Positions 149-55,869 are shown, counted from the stretch's first letter. The stretch: 55,869 bases of DNA from Nitrososphaerales archaeon (GCA_046759465.1 JBHICH010000005.1:1-55869), one strand, 5' to 3'. The notes: generated from the letters alone by a model not told the origin. Translations and numbers: made by a program.

Positions 149-1687
149 CTAAATCGTATATTTCCTTAATTCCTTATCTTTATCAATTGTTCTTTTGAAC
201 ATTATTCTATTAAGTCCATTGATCATTGCTTGCACACTTGCAATTACAATATCCTCTCCAGCTGCCCTTGCAGATGCAACATGACCATTGCTGTCCTCGA
301 CCTTTATGCTAACTTCTGCCAGTGCATCTGATCCACCCGTTATTGATTCGAGTCTAAACTCTCTCAACTTTATGCTAGCAAGTTCGTTTGTGATCTTCTG
401 TATTGCCTTGAGTGCAGCATCAACAGGTCCTAAACCAGTATCGGCAGCAACGAACTCCTTTCCCTCAACTATCAAGCGTACCGACGCCGTTGGCACGACG
501 CTCATTCCCGTCGTTACTACAAAATCCCTAAGCTCTACCTTCTGCTCAACCCCTTCCTGTCGCATTATCTGCCCCGCGATTGCAAGCAGATCCGCATCTG
601 TAATATTTTTGCCCTTGTCGCCCAATTCTTTGATCCTTCCAACAATTTCCTTAAGTTGCTCCTGTTTTGGTTTAAGGCCGTATTCTTCAAGCATGGCAGA
701 AACTCCATGTGCACCTGCATGCTTGCCAGCTTCGAGCCAGCGCTTCCTTCCAACCATTTCTGGGCTTATTGGTTCGTATGTTAATGGATTTGATAATACC
801 CCATGAGTATGAATTCCAGATTCGTGACCAAAAGCATTCTCGCCAATTATCGCTTTGTTTGGCTGCACAATTATACCAGTTAAGCTTGATACCAGTCTAG
901 AAGTTTCATACAATAATTCTGTCTTTATGCTAGTCTTTTTCGCATACAGGCAGTGCAGTGCCATAACAAATTCTTCAAGTGACGCATTGCCAGCTCTTTC
1001 TCCAAGTCCGTTCATGGTTACATGTGCACATGATGCGCCAGCTTCTATACCAGCTATTGAGTTCGCCACTGCCAATCCAAAGTCATCGTGGCAGTGCATA
1101 CTGATCGGAACTTTTACAACCGTTTTTAATTCTCTTATCAGACTATCAATATATTTTGGACTTGAATAACCAACGGTATCCGGAACATCAATCCTATCGG
1201 CTCCAGCACCAACAACAGCTTTGTAGACCTGTTTTAGAAATTCTCTATCTGTTCTCGTAGCATCCTCAGCAGAAAACTCAACATACAGCCCGTGCGCTTT
1301 GCTGTACTCTACAGCTTCAACTGCTTTGCGCAACGCCTCTTCTCTTGAGAGCTTTAACTTGTATTGTAAATGAATATCGGAAGTTGCAATGAATGTATGA
1401 ACATACTTTAGGTTGCAGTTCATGACTGCGTCAATGTCACGCTTTTCTGCCCTCGCAAGCCCTGCTATATTGCAGGAAAGTCCTTGCTTTGCAATTTCTA
1501 TAACTGCATCGACTTCTCCATGTGAAACTATTGGAAATCCTGCTTCGATTACATTAATTCCCAACTTATCCAACTGAATCGCTATCTTCACTTTATTCTG
1601 GGGTGTGAGTGTAACCCCAGGTGTTTGCTCACCATCCCTAAGTGTTGTGTCATAGATTCTAATGTACTCTTCACTCATATAGCGCAC
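149..1687 (-). CDS. leuA: 2-isopropylmalate synthase / (R)-citramalate synthase family (LeuA/CimA)
   Basis: 512-aa ORF. It has the N-terminal HMGL-type motif IYDTTLRDGEQTPG, the metal-site motif HCHDDFG, and a C-terminal LeuA-dimer-like regulatory region. It overlaps the end of ilvN by 17 nt, consistent with an ilvB-ilvN-leuA operon. LeuA and CimA cannot be separated by eye. Confidence 0.85.
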   Translation of the reverse strand: MRYMSEEYIRIYDTTLRDGEQTPGVTLTPQNKVKIAIQLDKLGINVIEAGFPIVSHGEVDAVIEIAKQGLSCNIAGLARAEKRDIDAVMNCNLKYVHTFIATSDIHLQYKLKLSREEALRKAVEAVEYSKAHGLYVEFSAEDATRTDREFLKQVYKAVVGAGADRIDVPDTVGYSSPKYIDSLIRELKTVVKVPISMHCHDDFGLAVANSIAGIEAGASCAHVTMNGLGERAGNASLEEFVMALHCLYAKKTSIKTELLYETSRLVSSLTGIIVQPNKAIIGENAFGHESGIHTHGVLSNPLTYEPISPEMVGRKRWLEAGKHAGAHGVSAMLEEYGLKPKQEQLKEIVGRIKELGDKGKNITDADLLAIAGQIMRQEGVEQKVELRDFVVTTGMSVVPTASVRLIVEGKEFVAADTGLGPVDAALKAIQKITNELASIKLREFRLESITGGSDALAEVSIKVEDSNGHVASARAAGEDIVIASVQAMINGLNRIMFKRTIDKDKELRKYTI

Positions 1688-40733: not shown

Positions 40734-43607
40734 ATGCAGATTGAGAATATTTTTTCAATTTTTGCCAAGCCATTGCAAAGAGCCATACAGGTTAAAGGAT
40801 TTCTTTCGCCAACAGACCCTCAGGTAAAGGCAATTCCTTTGATCCTAGAGGGAAAGAATGTGCTGCTAGTTGCCCCAACTGGAACTGGAAAAACAGAAGC
40901 AGCGCTACTTCCAATTCTTAATAAAATATACTCTATGCAGGACAAAAAACATGGCATCAAAGCTATCTACATAACACCGCTTAGAGCATTAAACAGAGAT
41001 CTGCTTGAAAGGTTACAATGGTGGTGCAAGCATTTAGACATAAGGATTGCTGTTAGGCATGGTGATACCGAGATCAAGGATAGAGGAAGGCAAGCCTTGG
41101 TGCCTCCTGAAATCTTGATTACAACTCCAGAAACCTTACAGGCAATACTTCCAGGTTTTCTGATGAGGAAACACTTGATGAGCGTCAAGTTTGTAATTGT
41201 TGATGAAGTTCATGAGCTAGCTGATGATAAGCGAGGAAGTCAGCTTGCTATTGCACTGGAGAGGCTAAGGCAGTTGGTGCTTGAAGATTTTCAAGTTATA
41301 GGTTTATCAGCGACGATAGGTACACCAGAAAAGGTCGCAAGCTTCCTTGTTGGTGACAATGAACCTTGTGAAATAGTAAAGGTTGCAGTGGCTAGGTTTA
41401 TGCAATTAGATATAGTATATCCTCAAGCTTCTCCAACTGATTATAAACTCGCGTCAAAACTTTTAACATATCCTGAAGTCGCAGCAAGGCTAAGGATAAT
41501 CAAGGAGTTTTTGCAGAAGTATCGTTCAGTACTAATCTTTACAAATACTAGAAGCGAGGCAGAGATACTAGCAAATAGATTTAGGATGTGGGATATAGAT
41601 TATCCCGTTGGCCTTCATCATGGCTCATTATCAAAACCGACGAGAGTTAATGCAGAGATCCAACTCAAAGAAGGAAAGTTGTATGGAGTCATATGCACGA
41701 GCTCGCTTGAAATGGGTATAGATATAGGTTCACTCGAAATGGCTATACAGTATAATTCCCCTCGTCAAGTTACAAGACTGCTACAAAGAGTCGGAAGGAG
41801 TGGTCATAAAGTATCCGGAACTGCTAGAGGTGTAATAATTACGCAAGATTCTGATGATACGCTTGAATCGATTGTAGTAGCAAGGAGGGCACATGAAGAA
41901 TTATTGGAGCCAGTATCTATCCCTGATATGCCATTCGATGTACTTACACATCAAATTGCTGGTCTGCTTTTGCATAAAAGAGAGTGGGATCTCGATGAAG
42001 TTCTTCAACTGGTTAGCAAAGCTTATCCTTATAGCAACTTGAAGAAAGAATATTTGCTAAAAGTCTTAGAGTACATGAACTCTCGCTACCCAAGAACTGC
42101 ATGGCTGTCTGAAGATAAAACGCAAATCAAAAGACCTCTAAATGCCAAGCAGTTGTACAAGTATTATTTCGAGAATCTCTCTATGATACCGGAAGAGAAA
42201 CATTATCTTGTGTTAAAAGAGAATGAAATTCCGATCGGGGTTCTTGATGAAGCGTTTGTAGCAGAACATGGAGATATCGGTACAAAGTTTGTTGAGGGAG
42301 GTTCTGTGTGGAGAATAATTCAAGTTTATCAAGACAAAATTTATGTTGCCGCAGAGGATGATCCTACAGGAGCAATTCCGAGCTGGGTTGGAGAAGAGAT
42401 TCCAGTTCCGTTTGAAATTGCTCAAGAAGTTGGCATGATAAGAAGGAAAGTGGAAAATGATCTTATGCAAAAGAGATCTATCAATAAGATAGTAGAAGAG
42501 CTTTGTGGAAAGTATCCTGCTAAGAAGGAAACTCTTGAAAGAATGTTATCTGAGATAAAGGAGCATGTAGAAAGAGTATTAGCCGTACCAACGGACAAGA
42601 GAATTACGATTGAGAAGTGGGATAATTATTTGGTAATCAACTCTTGTTTTGGTCACTTGGTGAACAGAACGCTTGCTAGATTACTTGCACATAAACTTTC
42701 AGAAAAGATCGGAAGTGCTGTAGGAGTTCAGCAAGATCCATATAGAATTGTAGTCAAGAGTCCAGCAACAGATGCCAGAGAACTTGAACCACTGTTCCTT
42801 AATCTTGCGAAGGAAAATATCAAAGACTTGTTCGTTAATGTATTGACAAAAACTGGAACATTTAAACGAAGAATTTTACATGTGGCAAAGAAGTTTGGAG
42901 CAATTTCAAGGGATGCTGACATAACAAGTGTAAGCCTTAACAATATGATAGAAGCCTTTAGAGATACTGCAATCTTCGATGAAGCAGTGAGAACAGTATT
43001 AAGGGTAGACGCAGACTTGCAAAATACAGCCAAAATTCTGTCCTTGATTAAGAGTGGAGAAATCCAGATAACTATTTTGGATAATAATGCTCAACTATCG
43101 CCAATGTCAAGAATCGGTATGGAAAAAATAGGGAGACGCTCTGATCTGATACCTCCACAAAGATTACAGAAGATTCTGCTCGAGTCTACAAAGGCTAGAC
43201 TGCTTTCTGAAGCTAGAACGTTGATTTGTACTCAATGCTGGGATCACATTCGAACTGCTGCAGTCAAAGAGCTGTTGAAGGATGTTAAGTGTCATAACTG
43301 CGGTTCTAACAAGATCGGTTTAACCGAAGAAACCGAGCAAAAATGCATGTTGCTTTGCGAGAAAATCCATTCAAAGCCCTCTGATCTGTCAAAAAGATAT
43401 AGACGAGTCCACAAGAATCTTGTAAAGTCGGCTGAGCTTGTTTCAAAGTATCATTTTGTAGCTGCTTTTGCCTTAGCAGGAAAGAATATTGCATTATCTG
43501 ATATCGAAAAGATTTTGGAAAAAGAAAACAGCGTGAATGATTCGTTAGTAGAGTTGATCTTAAAAGCTGAACGTAGAGCTCTTAAAAGACGTTACTTCGG
43601 GTACTAG
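40734..43607 (+). CDS. lhr: Lhr-type (COG1201) DEAD/DEAH-box superfamily-2 helicase with C-terminal zinc ribbon
   Basis: 957-aa ORF with motif I APTGTGKTEAA, motif II VDEVHEL, SAT, motif VI QRVGRSGH, a long Lhr-like WH/domain-4 region, and C-terminal CTQC...CHNC. Confidence 0.85.
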   Translation: MQIENIFSIFAKPLQRAIQVKGFLSPTDPQVKAIPLILEGKNVLLVAPTGTGKTEAALLPILNKIYSMQDKKHGIKAIYITPLRALNRDLLERLQWWCKHLDIRIAVRHGDTEIKDRGRQALVPPEILITTPETLQAILPGFLMRKHLMSVKFVIVDEVHELADDKRGSQLAIALERLRQLVLEDFQVIGLSATIGTPEKVASFLVGDNEPCEIVKVAVARFMQLDIVYPQASPTDYKLASKLLTYPEVAARLRIIKEFLQKYRSVLIFTNTRSEAEILANRFRMWDIDYPVGLHHGSLSKPTRVNAEIQLKEGKLYGVICTSSLEMGIDIGSLEMAIQYNSPRQVTRLLQRVGRSGHKVSGTARGVIITQDSDDTLESIVVARRAHEELLEPVSIPDMPFDVLTHQIAGLLLHKREWDLDEVLQLVSKAYPYSNLKKEYLLKVLEYMNSRYPRTAWLSEDKTQIKRPLNAKQLYKYYFENLSMIPEEKHYLVLKENEIPIGVLDEAFVAEHGDIGTKFVEGGSVWRIIQVYQDKIYVAAEDDPTGAIPSWVGEEIPVPFEIAQEVGMIRRKVENDLMQKRSINKIVEELCGKYPAKKETLERMLSEIKEHVERVLAVPTDKRITIEKWDNYLVINSCFGHLVNRTLARLLAHKLSEKIGSAVGVQQDPYRIVVKSPATDARELEPLFLNLAKENIKDLFVNVLTKTGTFKRRILHVAKKFGAISRDADITSVSLNNMIEAFRDTAIFDEAVRTVLRVDADLQNTAKILSLIKSGEIQITILDNNAQLSPMSRIGMEKIGRRSDLIPPQRLQKILLESTKARLLSEARTLICTQCWDHIRTAAVKELLKDVKCHNCGSNKIGLTEETEQKCMLLCEKIHSKPSDLSKRYRRVHKNLVKSAELVSKYHFVAAFALAGKNIALSDIEKILEKENSVNDSLVELILKAERRALKRRYFGY

Positions 43608-44176
43608 TTTTTAGATTCTTTACTAGAAGTACCTTCCGCAAGAACTAAGTTTAGCAAGGTCTTCTGCTCCACCTCTGCCTTTGTCCTCCAGCCGATATTG
43701 AGAGTTTCGTCTTTTTCAAGCAGATATCCTCTTCTAATGAATCTATCAAGGTTGAGCTGAACCTTCCACTTTGGGAACTTTTCTCTTAGCATTTGTTCCA
43801 GATCTTTTCTCCTTACCTTGCCTTGTCTAGGAACCATATACGCTATACTTGTAGCAAGTACAGCGATGTCATCTATCCTTAAACCCAGCGTACCACCTTC
43901 ACTTCTCAATAAAGAATCTTTAAAGACAACAAAGAACCTTGCCGAATCCAACTTCTGAATCTCAGATCGTTCTTCTTCTTCCTCTTCAAAAACACTTTTA
44001 ATTGCTAGGCCCAACTTGTCTATTTCAATATTTAATATATCGATGTATCTAGTGTAATCTTTTCCCAATACCTTCCTTAGCTCCCATCCCTTTACTCCAG
44101 GATATCGATGCTTCTGAAGCACCAACATCTGGAAAGCTTTGCTAATCTTTCTGCTAACTTCAGCTTCTTCAGACAT
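43604..44176 (-). CDS. tandem winged-helix KITE-type subunit (ScpB / MAGE-Nse3-like)
   Basis: 190 aa from MSEEAEV (ATG at 44176, overlapping the kleisin stop by 8 nt). Two WH-like halves are joined by an acidic linker (EEEEEERSE). The pattern AFQMLVLQKHRYPGVKGWELRKVL ... FFVVFKD ... IAVLATSIAYMVPRQGKVRRKDLEQML ... LDRFIRRGYLLEK ... IGWRTKAEVEQKTLLNLV parallels MAGE-homology/ScpB double-WH proteins. Confidence 0.55.
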   Translation of the reverse strand: MSEEAEVSRKISKAFQMLVLQKHRYPGVKGWELRKVLGKDYTRYIDILNIEIDKLGLAIKSVFEEEEEERSEIQKLDSARFFVVFKDSLLRSEGGTLGLRIDDIAVLATSIAYMVPRQGKVRRKDLEQMLREKFPKWKVQLNLDRFIRRGYLLEKDETLNIGWRTKAEVEQKTLLNLVLAEGTSSKESKN

Positions 44177-44987
44177 TTCCTCTGCTCTCCAAAATCTTTT
44201 GCCAACACTCATTATCAAATGTAACTGCGATTGATCTTGGAAAGGCATTTTTGGGGGGCAACTTTTGCTCATCATTTGCAACAATGTAAATTGTTTCTCC
44301 TAGTGGATCTATCTCCATAGCGGCGTATCCTTCTGAAACTAGGAAACTTGTGAGATAAGCTCTTCGAACTGAATCTTCATATGATTCGGACGCGATAAAT
44401 TCCCAATACGGAATCTTACCTTCCCTATACTTCGATCTTTTTTCCAAAAGTTCACTCCAAAGCTTTTGCAAATTATCATTGAATTCTTCTTCGCTTAGTA
44501 ATTTTAGCCTTATTAATTCATCAAATGAAATAGAACCGAGTTCAAGCGACGTATCGCGTGACAATGCAATCATCCTTTCCTTTAATGGCAACAGACTGTT
44601 CCAGTAATCAAGCGCTTGCTTAACCTTTGCTGGGGAGATTTGGTCAAGGCTGACAATCGGGTGTAAGCTCTTTAGAAATATACTTGCAAGTGTTTCTTCT
44701 GATAGAATCTTCAGCTTTAATTCTACCAGCAATGGATCCACATACAATGTTGATACTCTATGCTTTATCCATTCACCTTGCAGCCTTATCAGACCCGTTA
44801 TTCTTCTAATGGCCTCCATGTCAAGTAATAACTCGTCCAGCTCCTTCCAGTGTGGTAGATACTTCTTTAAGGTTCTAAGAGATGACTTTACATCAACATT
44901 GAATGGATCAAAGCCTTGCTTCTCCACCACCTTACAAAGGTCGATTATCCTCATGATTTGTTCATAGCTCAACTTTTGGTCGCTCAT
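44169..44987 (-). CDS. kleisin-like subunit (ScpA / Nse4-like)
   Basis: 272 aa from MSDQKL (ATG 1 nt after the SMC-like stop). It has an N-terminal helical domain, a long middle region, and a C-terminal winged helix DSVRRAYLTSFLVSEGYAAMEIDPLGETIYIV that resembles the ScpA C-terminal cap-binding domain. Confidence 0.6.
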   Translation of the reverse strand: MSDQKLSYEQIMRIIDLCKVVEKQGFDPFNVDVKSSLRTLKKYLPHWKELDELLLDMEAIRRITGLIRLQGEWIKHRVSTLYVDPLLVELKLKILSEETLASIFLKSLHPIVSLDQISPAKVKQALDYWNSLLPLKERMIALSRDTSLELGSISFDELIRLKLLSEEEFNDNLQKLWSELLEKRSKYREGKIPYWEFIASESYEDSVRRAYLTSFLVSEGYAAMEIDPLGETIYIVANDEQKLPPKNAFPRSIAVTFDNECWQKILESRGNV

Positions 44988-44988
44988 A

Positions 44989-47004
44989 TTAACTGCCCCC
45001 CTTTGTCGAAGATTTACCGTAAACGTTTTGAACAAATATTAGATGGGCATCTTTCTCCATGACGGTTAGCTGTGAAGGAGTTATCACTATGTACTGGCTT
45101 TCTGGTCTATCCCTTATATGCGAAAAGATCATCTTCAATACAGCCTCTCTGTTTTTAGGGTCTAGATGAAGATCGAACTCGTCAACCGCTCTAAATGGTG
45201 ACAACACACGCTGTTGCAAAGAAAGTAAAAATGCCATAATTGCAACACTCCTTTCACCGCCACTTTGTGTATATGCATCAAGAACCACCATTGGTGCTCC
45301 TCTAAAACCTACAAGTAACTCGAGCCCAGCTTTTTCTATATCGTTGATTTCGACAAGCCTAACAATTCCTGTTGCATTTATCTTTGATAATATATCATGA
45401 TAGGTGGGATTAATCTGTTCTATCAGGTTTTGCAATGTATGTTTCCATAGCTTCTTCCTCTCCTCAAGTTCGTTCATAGTTTTATTCTTATTTTCAGCAA
45501 GTACTGCTAGTTTGTCATTAAGTTCTGCATAAGTTGTTGAAAATTTATTGTATATTGTCTCTGCATCTCCAGGAATATCGCCAAGGCTCTTAATGTGGGC
45601 ATCGGTCATCTTAATTTCTTCAGAAACCTCTGCAGGCGAGCGTTCAGTCTCTATTCTGGGTTCTGCTTGTTCTGCTTGAGGCTGTAGCAAATTTAGCTGT
45701 TCTTCATTTTCCTTAAGCGATTTCTCGATATCAGAGATCTCGCGCTCAATGTTCTTCTTTCTGACATTGAGTAAAGCCTCATTCACCTTGAGCGTAACAA
45801 ACTTGCCAATAGTAGATTGTACGCGGCGCTCAACCTTTGCTATATCGCGCTGAATTGAATCTATCTCTTCATCATAGTCCTTTATCCTACGTTGAAGCTC
45901 ATCATTTTTTGATGATAAAGAATTAGTTTTGAACTCAAACTCATCGATCTTTGTAGTTAACATCTTAGTTGCATCTTCGTCACTAGATGCAATACACTCT
46001 TCAAGAATGTCTATTGTTGAATCAAGTAATGCCCCAGTTTCTTTAAATGATTCGATCTTCGCTAGAGTTTCAGATCTTTCTCTTTCAAGCCTAATCAATA
46101 CAAAGTATGATTTCCTTTGCTCAAATTGACTACCATCAAGATTTTCATTTGTCTTTCTTGCAAGCTCTTCGGTTTTTTGCATCTGTTCTATAACATCATT
46201 AAGAACCCTTTTCCTATTGCCCAATCTATCGTTAAGAGATTTCAGCATATTTTCGAACTTTTTCACCTGAGCCCAAAAAACCTCACATGCGAGAAGCTCC
46301 TTGCTCTGCAATAACTCTTTTCTTTTAAGAAATCTGTCATACATTTCTTTCCAGTATTCAAGTGTTTGGCCTGCACTTTGAAGCACCTTAGATAGTTCCG
46401 ATTGTTCAGTAACCAGCATTGATAACTTTTGTTGAGACTCGAGTATTCCTTCTCTATACTCGTGAAATCCAACCGCTTCTTCAACCATCTTCAGCTTATC
46501 TTGTGCTGATGTTATGCTGAACTCTTCTACCATTCCTTGGTGCATGATTATCAGAAGGTTGTCTGGGTTGATTCCGAACTGTCTGAATAATCTTGATACC
46601 TCGCTTCTGCTCATCTCTCTATAATCTGCTTCATACCAGTAGGTACCATCTGACTTCAGATATCTTGAAAGTATGAACGTGTCAGATTTGCTAAAAGGAA
46701 TGGCTCGTTTACCGTTGCGTATTTTATTATCGAACAATAAACTAACCCTTGCAATATCCTTTCCCCTTCTAATTAGATCGCGTAATCTTCTAGACCTTTC
46801 CGTAGCCGCTTGTCCAAGTGCAACTGATATTGCCAATAATATTGTAGACTTTCCTGCACCGTTCGGACCAGTTATAACATTAATACCCTTTTTGAGTGGT
46901 ATTCTACCATATTCGTAACTCATGAAGTTTTCCAGAATAATCTCCGATATGCTTGGTGAAACATTCTTGTATCTTTGAGGTGAAATGCGCTTCTCGGCTT
47001 CCAA
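44989..47004 (-). CDS. short hinge-less SMC-like ABC ATPase (Smc5/6-like head)
   Basis: 671-aa ORF. It has N-terminus ILENFMSYEYGRIPLKKGINVITGPNGAGKSTILLAISVALG (Walker A), about 330 aa of heptad-rich coiled coil with no hinge domain and no CxxC hook, and a C-terminal signature QSGGERSVAIMAFLLSLQ with Walker B FRAVDEFDLHLD. Confidence 0.75.
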   Translation of the reverse strand: MEAEKRISPQRYKNVSPSISEIILENFMSYEYGRIPLKKGINVITGPNGAGKSTILLAISVALGQAATERSRRLRDLIRRGKDIARVSLLFDNKIRNGKRAIPFSKSDTFILSRYLKSDGTYWYEADYREMSRSEVSRLFRQFGINPDNLLIIMHQGMVEEFSITSAQDKLKMVEEAVGFHEYREGILESQQKLSMLVTEQSELSKVLQSAGQTLEYWKEMYDRFLKRKELLQSKELLACEVFWAQVKKFENMLKSLNDRLGNRKRVLNDVIEQMQKTEELARKTNENLDGSQFEQRKSYFVLIRLERERSETLAKIESFKETGALLDSTIDILEECIASSDEDATKMLTTKIDEFEFKTNSLSSKNDELQRRIKDYDEEIDSIQRDIAKVERRVQSTIGKFVTLKVNEALLNVRKKNIEREISDIEKSLKENEEQLNLLQPQAEQAEPRIETERSPAEVSEEIKMTDAHIKSLGDIPGDAETIYNKFSTTYAELNDKLAVLAENKNKTMNELEERKKLWKHTLQNLIEQINPTYHDILSKINATGIVRLVEINDIEKAGLELLVGFRGAPMVVLDAYTQSGGERSVAIMAFLLSLQQRVLSPFRAVDEFDLHLDPKNREAVLKMIFSHIRDRPESQYIVITPSQLTVMEKDAHLIFVQNVYGKSSTKGGS

Positions 47005-47152
47005 TACTATAGATTATCCGTTATGCCATTAATAAATTGAAATGAAGTCATGCGTAGACATTTTTACTGATAGAAAACACATAAAGCTGTAGGCAAATAA
47101 GCTTACTGTGGTTTTAGCTGCAAAGATCTTTCACATAAAAGAAGAAACCGAC

Positions 47153-47797
47153 ATGGATGATATACTTATCAAACTGAGAGATCATAAGAGTAGCGAGGTC
47201 TTTGAAGCAGATGACAAAAAGATTGAGCTCGTTACTGAAATAAGAGACCTGAACATGGAAGAAGATTCTTTTAGTGGCATCTTTGCACAGGACCAGATAA
47301 CGTACATAACTCATCATGGGCAAAAGATCCCTACGCCAAGAACTATGGTGGCTCCGTTTATCCTTAATAAGATCAACGAGAGCACAGTCTTAACAATTCT
47401 AGAAAAGAAGAGAAGAGCCAATTTGGTAGCCAATACGCTAAGCAAAATAGTATTCCTAACTACAGGACATATAGTTGAAGCAAAGATAACACCTGAAACA
47501 TTGCAAAAGTTTCATGAAGAAAACTTTGATGATACCAAGATAATATTCTTTGATGATGTTGATATACCAAATATAGATAAATTGTCACTTTATGGTTCAG
47601 CACTTGGTAATACATCACTTTATGCCGACTACCTTGGTCATGGCAAGTTATGGTACACAGTCATCCGGTCGAAGAAGTATGGCTACATCGTAGGTATAAC
47701 AAGGAACTGTGTGCTTACTGTATTCAGCAAAATTGAACAACCGGAATTTATTGGTTACATCCAAAAAGAGGTCTTTCCTCTAATAACTCTTCCTTAG
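47153..47797 (+). CDS. hypothetical protein, divergent from the SMC-like operon
   Basis: 214 aa from the ATG at 47153 (the track ORF starts at GTG 47108). No Cys and no known motif. It is followed by the second metallophosphoesterase gene. Confidence 0.55.
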   Translation: MDDILIKLRDHKSSEVFEADDKKIELVTEIRDLNMEEDSFSGIFAQDQITYITHHGQKIPTPRTMVAPFILNKINESTVLTILEKKRRANLVANTLSKIVFLTTGHIVEAKITPETLQKFHEENFDDTKIIFFDDVDIPNIDKLSLYGSALGNTSLYADYLGHGKLWYTVIRSKKYGYIVGITRNCVLTVFSKIEQPEFIGYIQKEVFPLITLP

Positions 47798-47886: not shown

Positions 47887-48735
47887 GTGGTGAAGATGAT
47901 TAAGATAATCCCAAATGACCCTGCTTTACTGCTAAAGACAAGAAGAGAAAAGATACTTGTCATACCCGATCTTCACCTTGGATTTGAAAAAGAGCTCGCT
48001 GAAAGAGGAATAGCCTTCCCTTCACAAACAGCGAAAATATTTGCAAGGTTGCAAAGGCTTCTGAAGGAACAGAGACCAGAAAGTCTGATCTTCTTAGGAG
48101 ATATTAAACATGGGACATCAATAATACTGCCTTATGAAGGCACAGAAATTCCCAGGTTCTTTGAAAGATTACTTAAGTTGGTTGATAGAATCTGCGTGAT
48201 TCCCGGCAATCATGACGGTGGCCTTGATAAACTACTTCCAGAGGAGGTTAAGCTAGCATCAGTTAGGGGTTTAACAATAGTGGACGGCAGAAAGAAGATT
48301 TCACTAATTCACGGTCATGCATGGCCTCAGCCAGAATCATTTGCCTGCGATGAGCTAATAATGGCACACCATCATTTTACGATAATGCTAAGGGACTCCT
48401 CAGGGCTGAAGTCTTTTGAACCGATATGGGTTATAACAAGATGGAATAAGAATAAGATAGTAAGATCTTACCTCCGAGCAAGGGGGATAAAAGCTCGCTC
48501 TGATCCGTTTAAAGTCTTCAAAAAGAATTTTGGAATATATGTTAAGAGCCCAAAAATAATTGTCATGCCAACTTTTAACAACATGCTGGGAGGTATTGCT
48601 ATAAATCAAAAAGAGTCTGATTCTAAATACGTGGGTCCGATATTTAGTTCAGGCGGAGTAGATATGAGGACTTCAGAGTTATATCTATTAGATGGCACTT
48701 ACCTTGGCAAGTTATCACAATTAAGTATAAAGTGA
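47887..48735 (+). CDS. COG1407-type metallophosphoesterase (calcineurin-like), paralogue 2
   Basis: 282-aa ORF (GTG at 47887, or ATG at 47896). Motifs are IPDLHLGFE, LGDIKHG, PGNHDGG and IHGHAWP...AHHH. Confidence 0.75.
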   Translation: MVKMIKIIPNDPALLLKTRREKILVIPDLHLGFEKELAERGIAFPSQTAKIFARLQRLLKEQRPESLIFLGDIKHGTSIILPYEGTEIPRFFERLLKLVDRICVIPGNHDGGLDKLLPEEVKLASVRGLTIVDGRKKISLIHGHAWPQPESFACDELIMAHHHFTIMLRDSSGLKSFEPIWVITRWNKNKIVRSYLRARGIKARSDPFKVFKKNFGIYVKSPKIIVMPTFNNMLGGIAINQKESDSKYVGPIFSSGGVDMRTSELYLLDGTYLGKLSQLSIK

Positions 48736-55690: not shown

Positions 55691-55735
55691 AAATAAGCTG
55701 TGATGACTCTGAATTATTCGGCGCACTCAAAAGTA

Positions 55736-55825
55736 AGCCTCGGGCGGGCTTCGATCCCGCGACCCACAGCTTACAAGGCTCAACCATAAAATGTCTGTTG
55801 CTCTACTAGGCTGAGCTACCGAGGC
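55736..55825 (-). tRNA. tRNA-Thr (anticodon UGU) with a 16-nt intron at non-canonical position 30/31
   Basis: Manual fold: acceptor GCCTCGG/CCGAGGC, D arm GCTC-AGCCTAGTA-GAGC, T arm GCGGG-ATCGAAG-CCCGC. Removing ACATTTTATGGTTGAG gives the anticodon arm ACAGC-CTTGTAA-GCTGT. The pre-tRNA forms CAAC-AG|A...GTTG-AG|C, a bulge-helix-bulge. Confidence 0.8.
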
Positions 55826-55869
55826 TCGCATTATTGGCAATTGGGCGGCATTTAAAATCTTACGCAATG

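Follow-up and report, generated by a model that had tools for sequence, protein, structure and literature searches.

The window analyzed here is a 55,869-nucleotide (nt) stretch of Nitrososphaerales archaeon DNA (GCA_046759465.1, JBHICH010000005.1:1-55869). Our subject is a three-gene operon on its minus strand that encodes an SMC-family ATPase (g1), a kleisin (g2), and a KITE protein (g3). This single operon probably encodes an archaeal SMC5/6-related SMC-kleisin-KITE complex, in a compact form without a hinge. An earlier interpretation made from the sequence alone (the sequence-only reading) had placed three minus-strand genes of 671, 272, and 190 amino acids (aa) here, and we found open reading frames with these coordinates and lengths, arranged as follows:

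44989..47004, minus strand: g1, 671-aa SMC-family ATPase of the archaeal SMC5/6-related clade (open reading frame with a TTG start)
44169..44987, minus strand: g2, 272-aa Nse4-type kleisin (open reading frame from ATG)
43604..44176, minus strand: g3, 190-aa tandem winged-helix (KITE) protein of the Nse1/Nse3/MAGE type (open reading frame from ATG)
44985..44991, minus strand: g1 stop/g2 start junction TAAtATG (TAA at 44991-44989, one base, then ATG at 44987)
44169..44176, minus strand: overlap of the g2 stop TGA with the g3 start, ATGTCTGA
47005..47107, no strand: divergent intergenic region, 103 nt
47038-47029, minus strand: TATA-like AATTTATTAA, ~29 nt upstream of the g1 TTG start

The coupling junctions TAAtATG and ATGTCTGA read in the sequence as had been described. 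Shine-Dalgarno-like G-rich tracts precede the internal starts (GGGGGG for g2 and GAGG for g3). The three genes are translationally coupled and are co-inherited across several archaeal phyla. The orthologous loci L001 and L002 have the same g1 TTG start context, TTGGAAGCT. We also found a ATTTATTAA element (in L001 as ATTTATTAA(A)) ~30 nt upstream of the g1 start in both the window and L001. Because this element is TATA-like and lies at that distance, it suggests that the operon transcript is leaderless or near-leaderless. A scan for bacterial promoters and terminators was set aside, as it returned fewer sites than shuffled controls and is not applicable to archaea.

We compared g1 with protein family models and found that it matched Pfam SMC_N with an E value of 1.5e-35. 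Its best NCBIfam match was TIGR02169 (archaeal-type SMC), with 192 bits versus a cutoff of 729. The cutoffs were not reached for ASRP (73.9 bits; cutoff, 300) or for the Rad50 models (at most 71 bits; cutoffs, 700 to 1087), and g1 fell far below the cutoff for RecN. Because of the SMC_N match and the NCBIfam scores below cutoff, we place g1 in the SMC superfamily but not among canonical SMC, ASRP, or Rad50 proteins. The scores, together with the missing zinc hook, ruled out ASRP, Rad50, RecN, and RecF as identities for g1. This agrees with the sequence-only reading, which had taken g1 to be SMC-like: the protein is SMC-type and not a Rad50, RecF, or LmuB protein.

That reading had also judged the C-terminal block of g1 to be nearer to Smc5/6 than to canonical SMC, and several comparisons bear this out. 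Among PDB sequences searched with phmmer, human Smc5 (6.8e-28) and yeast Smc5 (2.7e-26) were the best matches, followed by Pyrococcus SMC heads and then Smc6. The C-terminal head alone scored ~70 bits with Smc5, 46 bits with Pyrococcus (archaeal) SMC, and 41 bits with Smc6, and it shares TQSGGER(S/A)V, PFRxVDE, and SQYxxITP with Smc5. We then considered an exhaustive HMMER scan of g1 against 1.84 billion representative proteins, which gave 119 matches at an E value of ≤1e-30. Among the matches listed, the first full-length ones from outside the family mainly carried the Smc5 motif QYFLITPKLL. Most of the remaining nonfamily matches listed were of the LSGGERS/…LTP… type, and the two that we looked up both bear the name SMC6 at their sources. 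Canonical-type SMC, whose H-loop region reads I(T/S)(H/L), accounted for only ~5 of the listed nonfamily matches; in g1, that region reads ITP.

In a neighbor-joining tree of head domains, which is rough, rooted on canonical forms, and without support values, eukaryotic SMC5 plus SMC6 was sister to the archaeal g1 family. We also modeled g1 as a monomer with AlphaFold2 (AF2), using a 33-sequence alignment (mean predicted local distance difference test score [pLDDT], 78), and the top Foldseek matches of this model were Smc6 and Smc5. The affinity agrees with published phylogenies that define "SMC5/6-related aSMC" (PMC8665677). We concluded that g1 is an SMC-family ABC ATPase whose head, chiefly in its C-terminal half, is of the Smc5/6 type.

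The motifs that the sequence-only reading quoted for g1 (GPNGAGKST, QSGGERS, FRAVDEFD, and YIVITPSQL) are all present and are invariant or nearly so in 33 homologues. They lie in the head as follows:

residues ~19-180 and ~541-660, minus strand: split ABC head of g1 (AF2 model and Pfam)
46846..46869, minus strand: Walker A/P-loop GPNGAGKS, residues 46-53 (G46, P47, N48, G49, G51, K52, and S53 invariant in 33 homologues)
45247..45267, minus strand: ABC signature QSGGERS, residues 580-586, Smc5-like (Q580 to R585 invariant in 33 homologues)
45172..45192, minus strand: Walker B/D-loop RAVDEFD, residues 605-611 (R605, D608, E609, F610, and D611 invariant in 33 homologues)

The QSGGERS signature aligns with HTQSGGERAVS and HHQSGGERSVS of yeast and human Smc5, and RAVDEFD aligns with PFRVVDEIN of Smc5. 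The Q-loop residue Q156 is likewise invariant in the 33 homologues. With all of its ATPase motifs conserved, g1 is predicted to be an intact ATPase.

We next turn to the partners of g1. The domains that we recognized in them are listed below.

44187..44414, minus strand: g2 C-terminal winged-helix domain, residues 192-267 (extent of Pfam Nse4_C; aligns to yeast Nse4 residues 266-359)
within 43604..44176, minus strand: g3 winged helices, WH1 at ~residues 3-85 and WH2 at ~residues 101-161 (AF2)

We found that g2 matches Pfam Nse4_C over residues 192-267 with 26.1 bits, just above the gathering cutoff of 26, and that 32 of 34 members of its family match the same model. None of the 34 matched ScpA in Pfam. 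When the g2 family profile was searched against PDB, only yeast Nse4 (8.9e-5) and human EID3 (2.8e-3) were found. These data show that g2, which had been read as a kleisin ending in a winged helix, is a kleisin of the Nse4 type. The winged helix is presumably the domain that binds the SMC cap, because the same domain has a known cap-binding role in Nse4 and ScpA.

For g3, the AF2 model (mean pLDDT, 76.5; predicted template modeling score [pTM], 0.52) has two H-H-H-E-E winged-helix modules in tandem. Its first Foldseek matches in PDB were 7dg2_C and 7dg2_A (the Nse1-Nse3-Nse4 complex), MAGE-G1/NSE1, and MAGEA4, with E values of 1.3e-5 to 1.6e-3 and TM scores of up to 0.63. For the chains of the Nse1-Nse3-Nse4 and MAGE-G1/NSE1 complexes, the E values were 1e-5 to 2e-4. 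The Nse1 and Nse3 chains of yeast Smc5/6 structures came next, MukE was lower, and ScpB ranked 48th. Scattered members of the g3 family have weak MAGE or Nse1 matches, and none of 32 matched ScpB in Pfam. The model thus predicts that g3 is a tandem winged-helix protein whose nearest structures are Nse3, Nse1, and MAGE, as expected for the KITE protein that had been suggested.

These results bear on the possibility that the trio is the ordinary condensin-type SMC-ScpAB of this lineage, divergent and shortened, and serves bulk chromosome organization and segregation. Such a complex resembles the trio in that its homodimeric SMC, single kleisin, and KITE dimer are encoded together and its ABC ATPase head has conserved catalytic motifs. 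TIGR02169 is the best NCBIfam match of g1, the whole protein has Pyrococcus SMC heads among its best PDB matches, and many homologues are named "chromosome segregation ATPase" by JGI. However, the 192 bits are far under the TIGR02169 cutoff, the kleisin matches Nse4_C and never ScpA, the KITE model matches Nse3, Nse1, and MAGE well before ScpB, and g1 has no hinge (see below). The C-terminal head favors Smc5 by 24 bits, and the nonfamily matches in the protein library are mainly SMC5/6. In a published table, ScpB-like kites co-occur with separate Nse1/3-related kites in several Nitrososphaerales families (bioRxiv 10.1101/2024.01.07.573240). For Conexivisphaera calida, that table has the SMC5/6-related trio and no canonical SMC. 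No canonical SMC-ScpAB is encoded in the window. We consider this explanation very improbable.

The sequence-only reading had described g1 as lacking both a hinge and a Rad50 zinc hook, and we found the same. There is no Pfam SMC_hinge match in g1 and no CxxC motif; the only two cysteines are C240 and C337. In the AF2 monomer model, helices span residues 181-338, 343-446, 457-473, and 481-540, the last of which leads into the C-terminal head. The model contains no globular domain at the apex. In the place of a hinge or zinc hook, it has a bare turn:

45979..45990, minus strand: arm apex, predicted 4-residue turn A339-S-S-D342 (AF2; local pLDDT, 77-85)

The predicted arm is therefore a single antiparallel helical hairpin, with short breaks at residues 447-456 and 474-480 of the descending arm in a joint-like position. 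Its ascending helix of ~158 residues would be ~23 nm long at ~1.5 Å per residue. The bacterial Smc arm is quoted as 47-49 nm, so the g1 arm is predicted to be roughly half the length of a canonical SMC arm. Residues 321-360 are the least conserved stretch of g1 and the sole place with insertions or deletions; thus, the arm tip has no conserved dimerization motif. Some 35-40 residues down from the apex, in a coiled coil that is variable elsewhere, we observed a conserved patch at residues 298-309 and ~385 (window positions ~46078-46113 and ~45850). It consists of K298, L299, Y300, L303, and E307 on the ascending side and Q385 on the descending side, and it could be a site of arm-arm or partner contact.

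To place the trio among its relatives, we used a kleisin-anchored scan with one genome per GTDB species, which recovered 80 loci. Most are from Bathyarchaeia, some are from Nitrososphaerales, and one is from Hydrothermarchaeota. Of the 80 loci, 73-77 contain all three families, with the kleisin gene followed by the kite gene throughout. The SMC gene lies directly upstream of the kleisin gene in ~60. Most exceptions reflect a contig end or an assembly gap within the SMC gene; a few loci lack this gene or have it displaced. Because the same three-gene order is kept in ~60 of 80 independent loci, the arrangement is not due to chance. The trio is the sole universally conserved unit, and no further conserved partner was found in the 80 loci. 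Across them, the SMC protein is ~630-715 aa where complete, the kleisin ~270 aa, and the KITE protein ~190 aa. Homologues of g1 in Nitrososphaerales are uniformly 620-690 aa, and g3 homologues also occur in Methanomethylicaceae and Bathyarchaeota.

Some relatives of g1 have a larger apex. The 982-aa protein P0360, from locus L082, has a globular apex with a near-full-length SMC_hinge match that stays below threshold (17.5 bits), and a sequence search of this region against PDB found no hinge. Its locus (L082, 4001-8248) has the same SMC-kleisin-KITE operon with a probable hinge in its SMC, and the kleisin and KITE proteins match the g2 and g3 profiles at E values of 6e-35 and 6.5e-30. Downstream of it on the same strand are a DUF763 gene at 2.5 kb and then an Lhr-type helicase gene at 3.6 kb. 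The relative P0394 matches Pfam SMC_hinge at 4.6e-11, and an 835-aa relative from an Asgard archaeon (Freyarchaeum) has a bona fide Pfam hinge. In our rough head tree, the hinge-bearing forms are basal and the short forms are the crown, which suggests that the hinge was lost secondarily in the short forms.

A further apex type was seen in Bathyarchaeial paralogues of the SMC, namely P0325, P0316, and P0328 (1,016-1,047 aa; 40-44% identity in heads and proximal arms). At the apex, they have ~400 additional residues that include a C(D/E)(K/R)CG motif resembling the zinc hook of Rad50 or ASRP. In the one hook-type locus examined, P0325 (L081, 4001-7087) stands alone with no adjoining kleisin or KITE gene.

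The genes that flank the trio in the window are as follows:

40734..43607, plus strand: Lhr-type DEAD/DEAH helicase, 957 aa (Pfam DEAD, DEAD_assoc, and WH_Lhr; NCBIfam PRK13767, 527 bits)
47108..47797, plus strand: u229, conserved 229-aa protein, divergent from g1
47887..48735, plus strand: SbcD-related/PdeM-like metallophosphoesterase, 282 aa (Pfam Metallophos)

An Lhr-type helicase gene is convergent downstream of the trio in 9 of the 59 loci with enough flank. In the window, the convergent Lhr and g3 stops (TAG on each strand) share the palindrome CTAG at 43604-43607 with a 2-nt overlap, and similar end-to-end overlaps occur in L001, L003, L006, and L018. The u229 gene had no match in Pfam, NCBIfam, PADLOC, or PDB. 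Among the 54 loci with sufficient flank, 13 have it upstream of and divergent from the SMC gene (43-78% identity); these 13 span Nitrososphaerales, Bathyarchaeia, and Hydrothermarchaeota. Its product may be a fourth partner with loose linkage, or the gene may be coregulated. The phosphoesterase scored below cutoff with NCBIfam TIGR00024 SbcD_rel_arch (81 bits) and TIGR04123 PdeM (60 bits). The layout of Lhr, KITE-kleisin-SMC on the opposite strand, u229, and phosphoesterase is common to the window, L001, L002, and L018, and the SMC operon looks as if it were embedded in a neighborhood of repair genes. Elsewhere in the window, a tRNA-Lys(UUU) call at 55735-55826 on the minus strand is 92 nt, longer than a standard tRNA, which suggests an archaeal tRNA intron.

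The phosphoesterase raises the possibility that g1 is a Rad50/SbcC- or ASRP (ClsN/Sph)-type ATPase that forms a nuclease complex with this SbcD-like enzyme, with g2 and g3 unrelated to it. The enzyme is encoded 0.9 kb upstream on the other strand, and g1 has some score with the ASRP (74 bits) and Rad50 (~71 bits) models. In addition, the close Bathyarchaeial relatives have a CxxC zinc-hook-like apex, and one of them is the lone P0325. Against this, both scores are far under the cutoffs, g1 itself has no CxxC motif, and the phosphoesterase lies beside the trio in only 3 of the 80 loci (L001, L002, and L018). Across loci, it is g2 and g3, with their kleisin and KITE signatures, that are universally linked with the SMC gene. 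We regard a nuclease complex of this kind as extremely unlikely.

The sequence-only reading had left open whether the trio is an Smc5/6-like or a defense/repair-type complex. A defense module would act against plasmids or viruses, like Wadjet (JetABC), Lamassu, or the restriction of extrachromosomal DNA by eukaryotic Smc5/6. Eukaryotic Smc5/6 silences viral episomes, and short arms are typical of some defense ABC ATPases. In PADLOC, g1 matched mad3 (112 bits), LmuB (71 bits), AriA, and JetC, and the neighboring Lhr-type helicase also matched the BrxH, SngC, and DpdJ profiles. However, the g1 matches are confined to the generic ABC head, and g2 and g3 have none. Wadjet and Lamassu have a cognate effector (JetD or LmuA) and accessory subunits, whereas the window operon contains no nuclease or effector gene of the JetD or LmuA type. 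The trio also lies among housekeeping genes and has the same GC content as its flanks. In many Bathyarchaeia and Nitrososphaerales genomes, it occurs in varied and often housekeeping contexts (e.g., ribosomal-protein genes), not in recognizable defense islands. Because PADLOC gave only generic ATPase-head matches, we rejected assignment to a defense system, and a defense role seems unlikely. The Smc5/6-like, compact SMC-kleisin-KITE part of the proposal was upheld by the head, the Nse4-type kleisin, and the Nse3-like KITE protein.

How might an SMC5/6-related complex of this form work? By homology with SMC-ScpAB and Smc5/6, two g1 proteins would sandwich two ATPs between their heads as a homodimer. 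One g2 would bridge the pair asymmetrically: helices from its N terminus would bind one g1 at the neck, and the winged helix at its C terminus would bind the second g1 at the cap. A g3 dimer would sit on the middle of g2. The arm tips would have no dimerization module, and the only closed compartment would be that formed by the heads, kleisin, and KITE proteins. Such a complex could act as an ATP-gated DNA clamp, or as a short-range DNA bridge, on top of the heads, like the DNA-clamp state of Smc5/6. Given that single closed compartment, we consider a clamp or short-range bridge likelier than a long-range loop extruder or a large ring closed by hinges. Since the Lhr and SbcD-like neighborhood recurs and ancestry is common with Smc5/6, the most likely role would be in repair or in the processing of replication forks or junctions.

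Several points weigh against this interpretation or parts of it. Taken alone, the g1 N-terminal head shows no subfamily preference, as Smc2, Smc6, Smc3, and Smc5 all score 55-59 bits and archaeal SMC is not set apart either; for this reason, the idea of a Smc6-like N-terminal head joined to a Smc5-like C-terminal head was dropped. The N-terminal two-thirds of g2 has no detectable kin outside its own family and no similarity to a kleisin N-domain. Searches with g3 by sequence and profile (Pfam, NCBIfam, and PDB) gave nothing significant, including for Nse1, Nse3, and MAGE, and the confidence of its model is moderate (the pLDDT of 76.5 and pTM of 0.52 noted above). The monomer model of g1 would also allow two hairpin tips to dimerize as in RecN, which would restore a closed ring. 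The proposed neck and cap bridging, g3 dimer, and stoichiometry are drawn only from homology, and the suggested repair role from the neighborhood in a minority of loci and analogy with eukaryotic Smc5/6. As for other SMC systems, published ScpB-like kites co-occur with Nse1/3-related kites in relatives, and the trio is therefore probably a second SMC system beside a separate canonical SMC-ScpAB in this lineage.

Previous work has described the family and the operon type. The 80 "SMC5/6-related aSMC" homologues defined by Yoshinaga and Inagaki (2021; PMC8665677) come largely from TACK archaea, Thaumarchaeota and Bathyarchaeota among them. To these, van Hooff et al. (bioRxiv 10.1101/2024.01.07.573240; 2024, v2 2025) added kleisins related to Nse4 and kites related to Nse1/3, and they showed SMC-kleisin-kite operons of the SMC5/6-related kind in TACK and Asgard archaea. 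The trio has the same three subunit types in the same SMC-kleisin-kite order, comes from the same taxa (Thaumarchaeota/Nitrososphaeria and Bathyarchaeia), and gives the same SMC5/6, Nse4, and Nse1/3 signal. We found the SMC5/6 grouping, the adjoining Nse4-related kleisin, and the gene order of the published complexes, with the kite recognized by structure only. The Smc5/6-like reading of this locus is thus correct and, because the family is published, not new.

In contrast to the complexes as published, the window SMC is a 671-aa protein with a bare hairpin apex. The introduction of the preprint describes all SMC complexes as hinge dimerized, and its table lists kleisin and kite in Bathyarchaeia and Nitrososphaerales mostly without a SMC5/6-related SMC, the SMC set having been down-sampled according to the authors (bioRxiv 10.1101/2024.01.07.573240). 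Neither PMC8665677 nor bioRxiv 10.1101/2024.01.07.573240 mentions arm length or hinge loss. For a hinge-less archaeal complex of the SMC5/6 type, the literature searched yielded only a bacterial (actinobacterial) hinge-less SMC clade (PMC12153180). The hinge-less, short-armed architecture and the diversity of the apex have apparently not been remarked on before. The sequences of the clade are abundant in public databases and are probably already in published trees. Novelty is limited to the architecture and its distribution, both predicted from monomer models and sequence analysis.

Compared with eukaryotic Smc5/6, the trio shares QSGGERS, PFRxVDE, QYxxITP, the Nse4_C winged helix, and a Nse3/MAGE-like tandem winged helix. 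The eukaryotic complex is built on a Smc5/Smc6 heterodimer, whereas the window operon has one SMC gene, and its product is therefore presumably a homodimer. In place of Nse1 (with its RING domain) and Nse3, the operon encodes a single 190-aa KITE protein without a RING domain, and it has no Nse2 (SUMO ligase) or Nse5/6. Eukaryotic Smc5/6 bears a hinge, unlike g1, whose arms are about half as long and hinge-less. Judged as an SMC protein sensu stricto, g1 has the ABC ATPase head but not the central dimerizing hinge.

RecN, the zinc-hook proteins Rad50 and ASRP, and the actinobacterial "hinge-less" SMC clade (PMC12153180) resemble g1 in carrying a head on a shortened coiled coil without an SMC hinge, which shows that loss or replacement of the hinge recurs in the SMC superfamily. 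The oceanic actinobacterial clade is bacterial and derived from canonical SMC, unlike g1, and a kleisin is never mentioned for it (PMC12153180). In the NCBIfam comparison, g1 was not related to RecN, Rad50, or ASRP above background, and the apex CxxC zinc hook of ASRP and Rad50 is absent from g1. RecN, Rad50, and ASRP are not known to have kleisin and KITE partners.

Eukaryotic Smc5/6 is proposed to descend from archaeal SMC5/6-related complexes, which in the literature searched are known only from phylogenomics. A hinge-less arm of ~23 nm bears on the need for long arms or a hinge-closed ring in DNA clamping, entrapment, and loop extrusion. For structural and single-molecule studies, the trio would offer a tractable target that is small and homodimeric, and the recurrent Lhr-helicase neighborhood provides a testable link to repair or replication-fork processing. 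We suggest tentatively, as a possibility with slightly less than even odds, that the largest archaeal clade of Smc5/6 relatives lost its hinge together with the outer half of each arm and kept its kleisin and KITE partners. If this is true, the complex would be a natural "mini-SMC" in which no hinge-closed ring is possible, a DNA clamp made purely of heads, kleisin, and KITE. In that case, the apex of the arm (hinge, CxxC hook, or bare turn) would be a module that can be exchanged in the closest prokaryotic relatives of Smc5/6, and the head module alone would be enough for the ancestral function.

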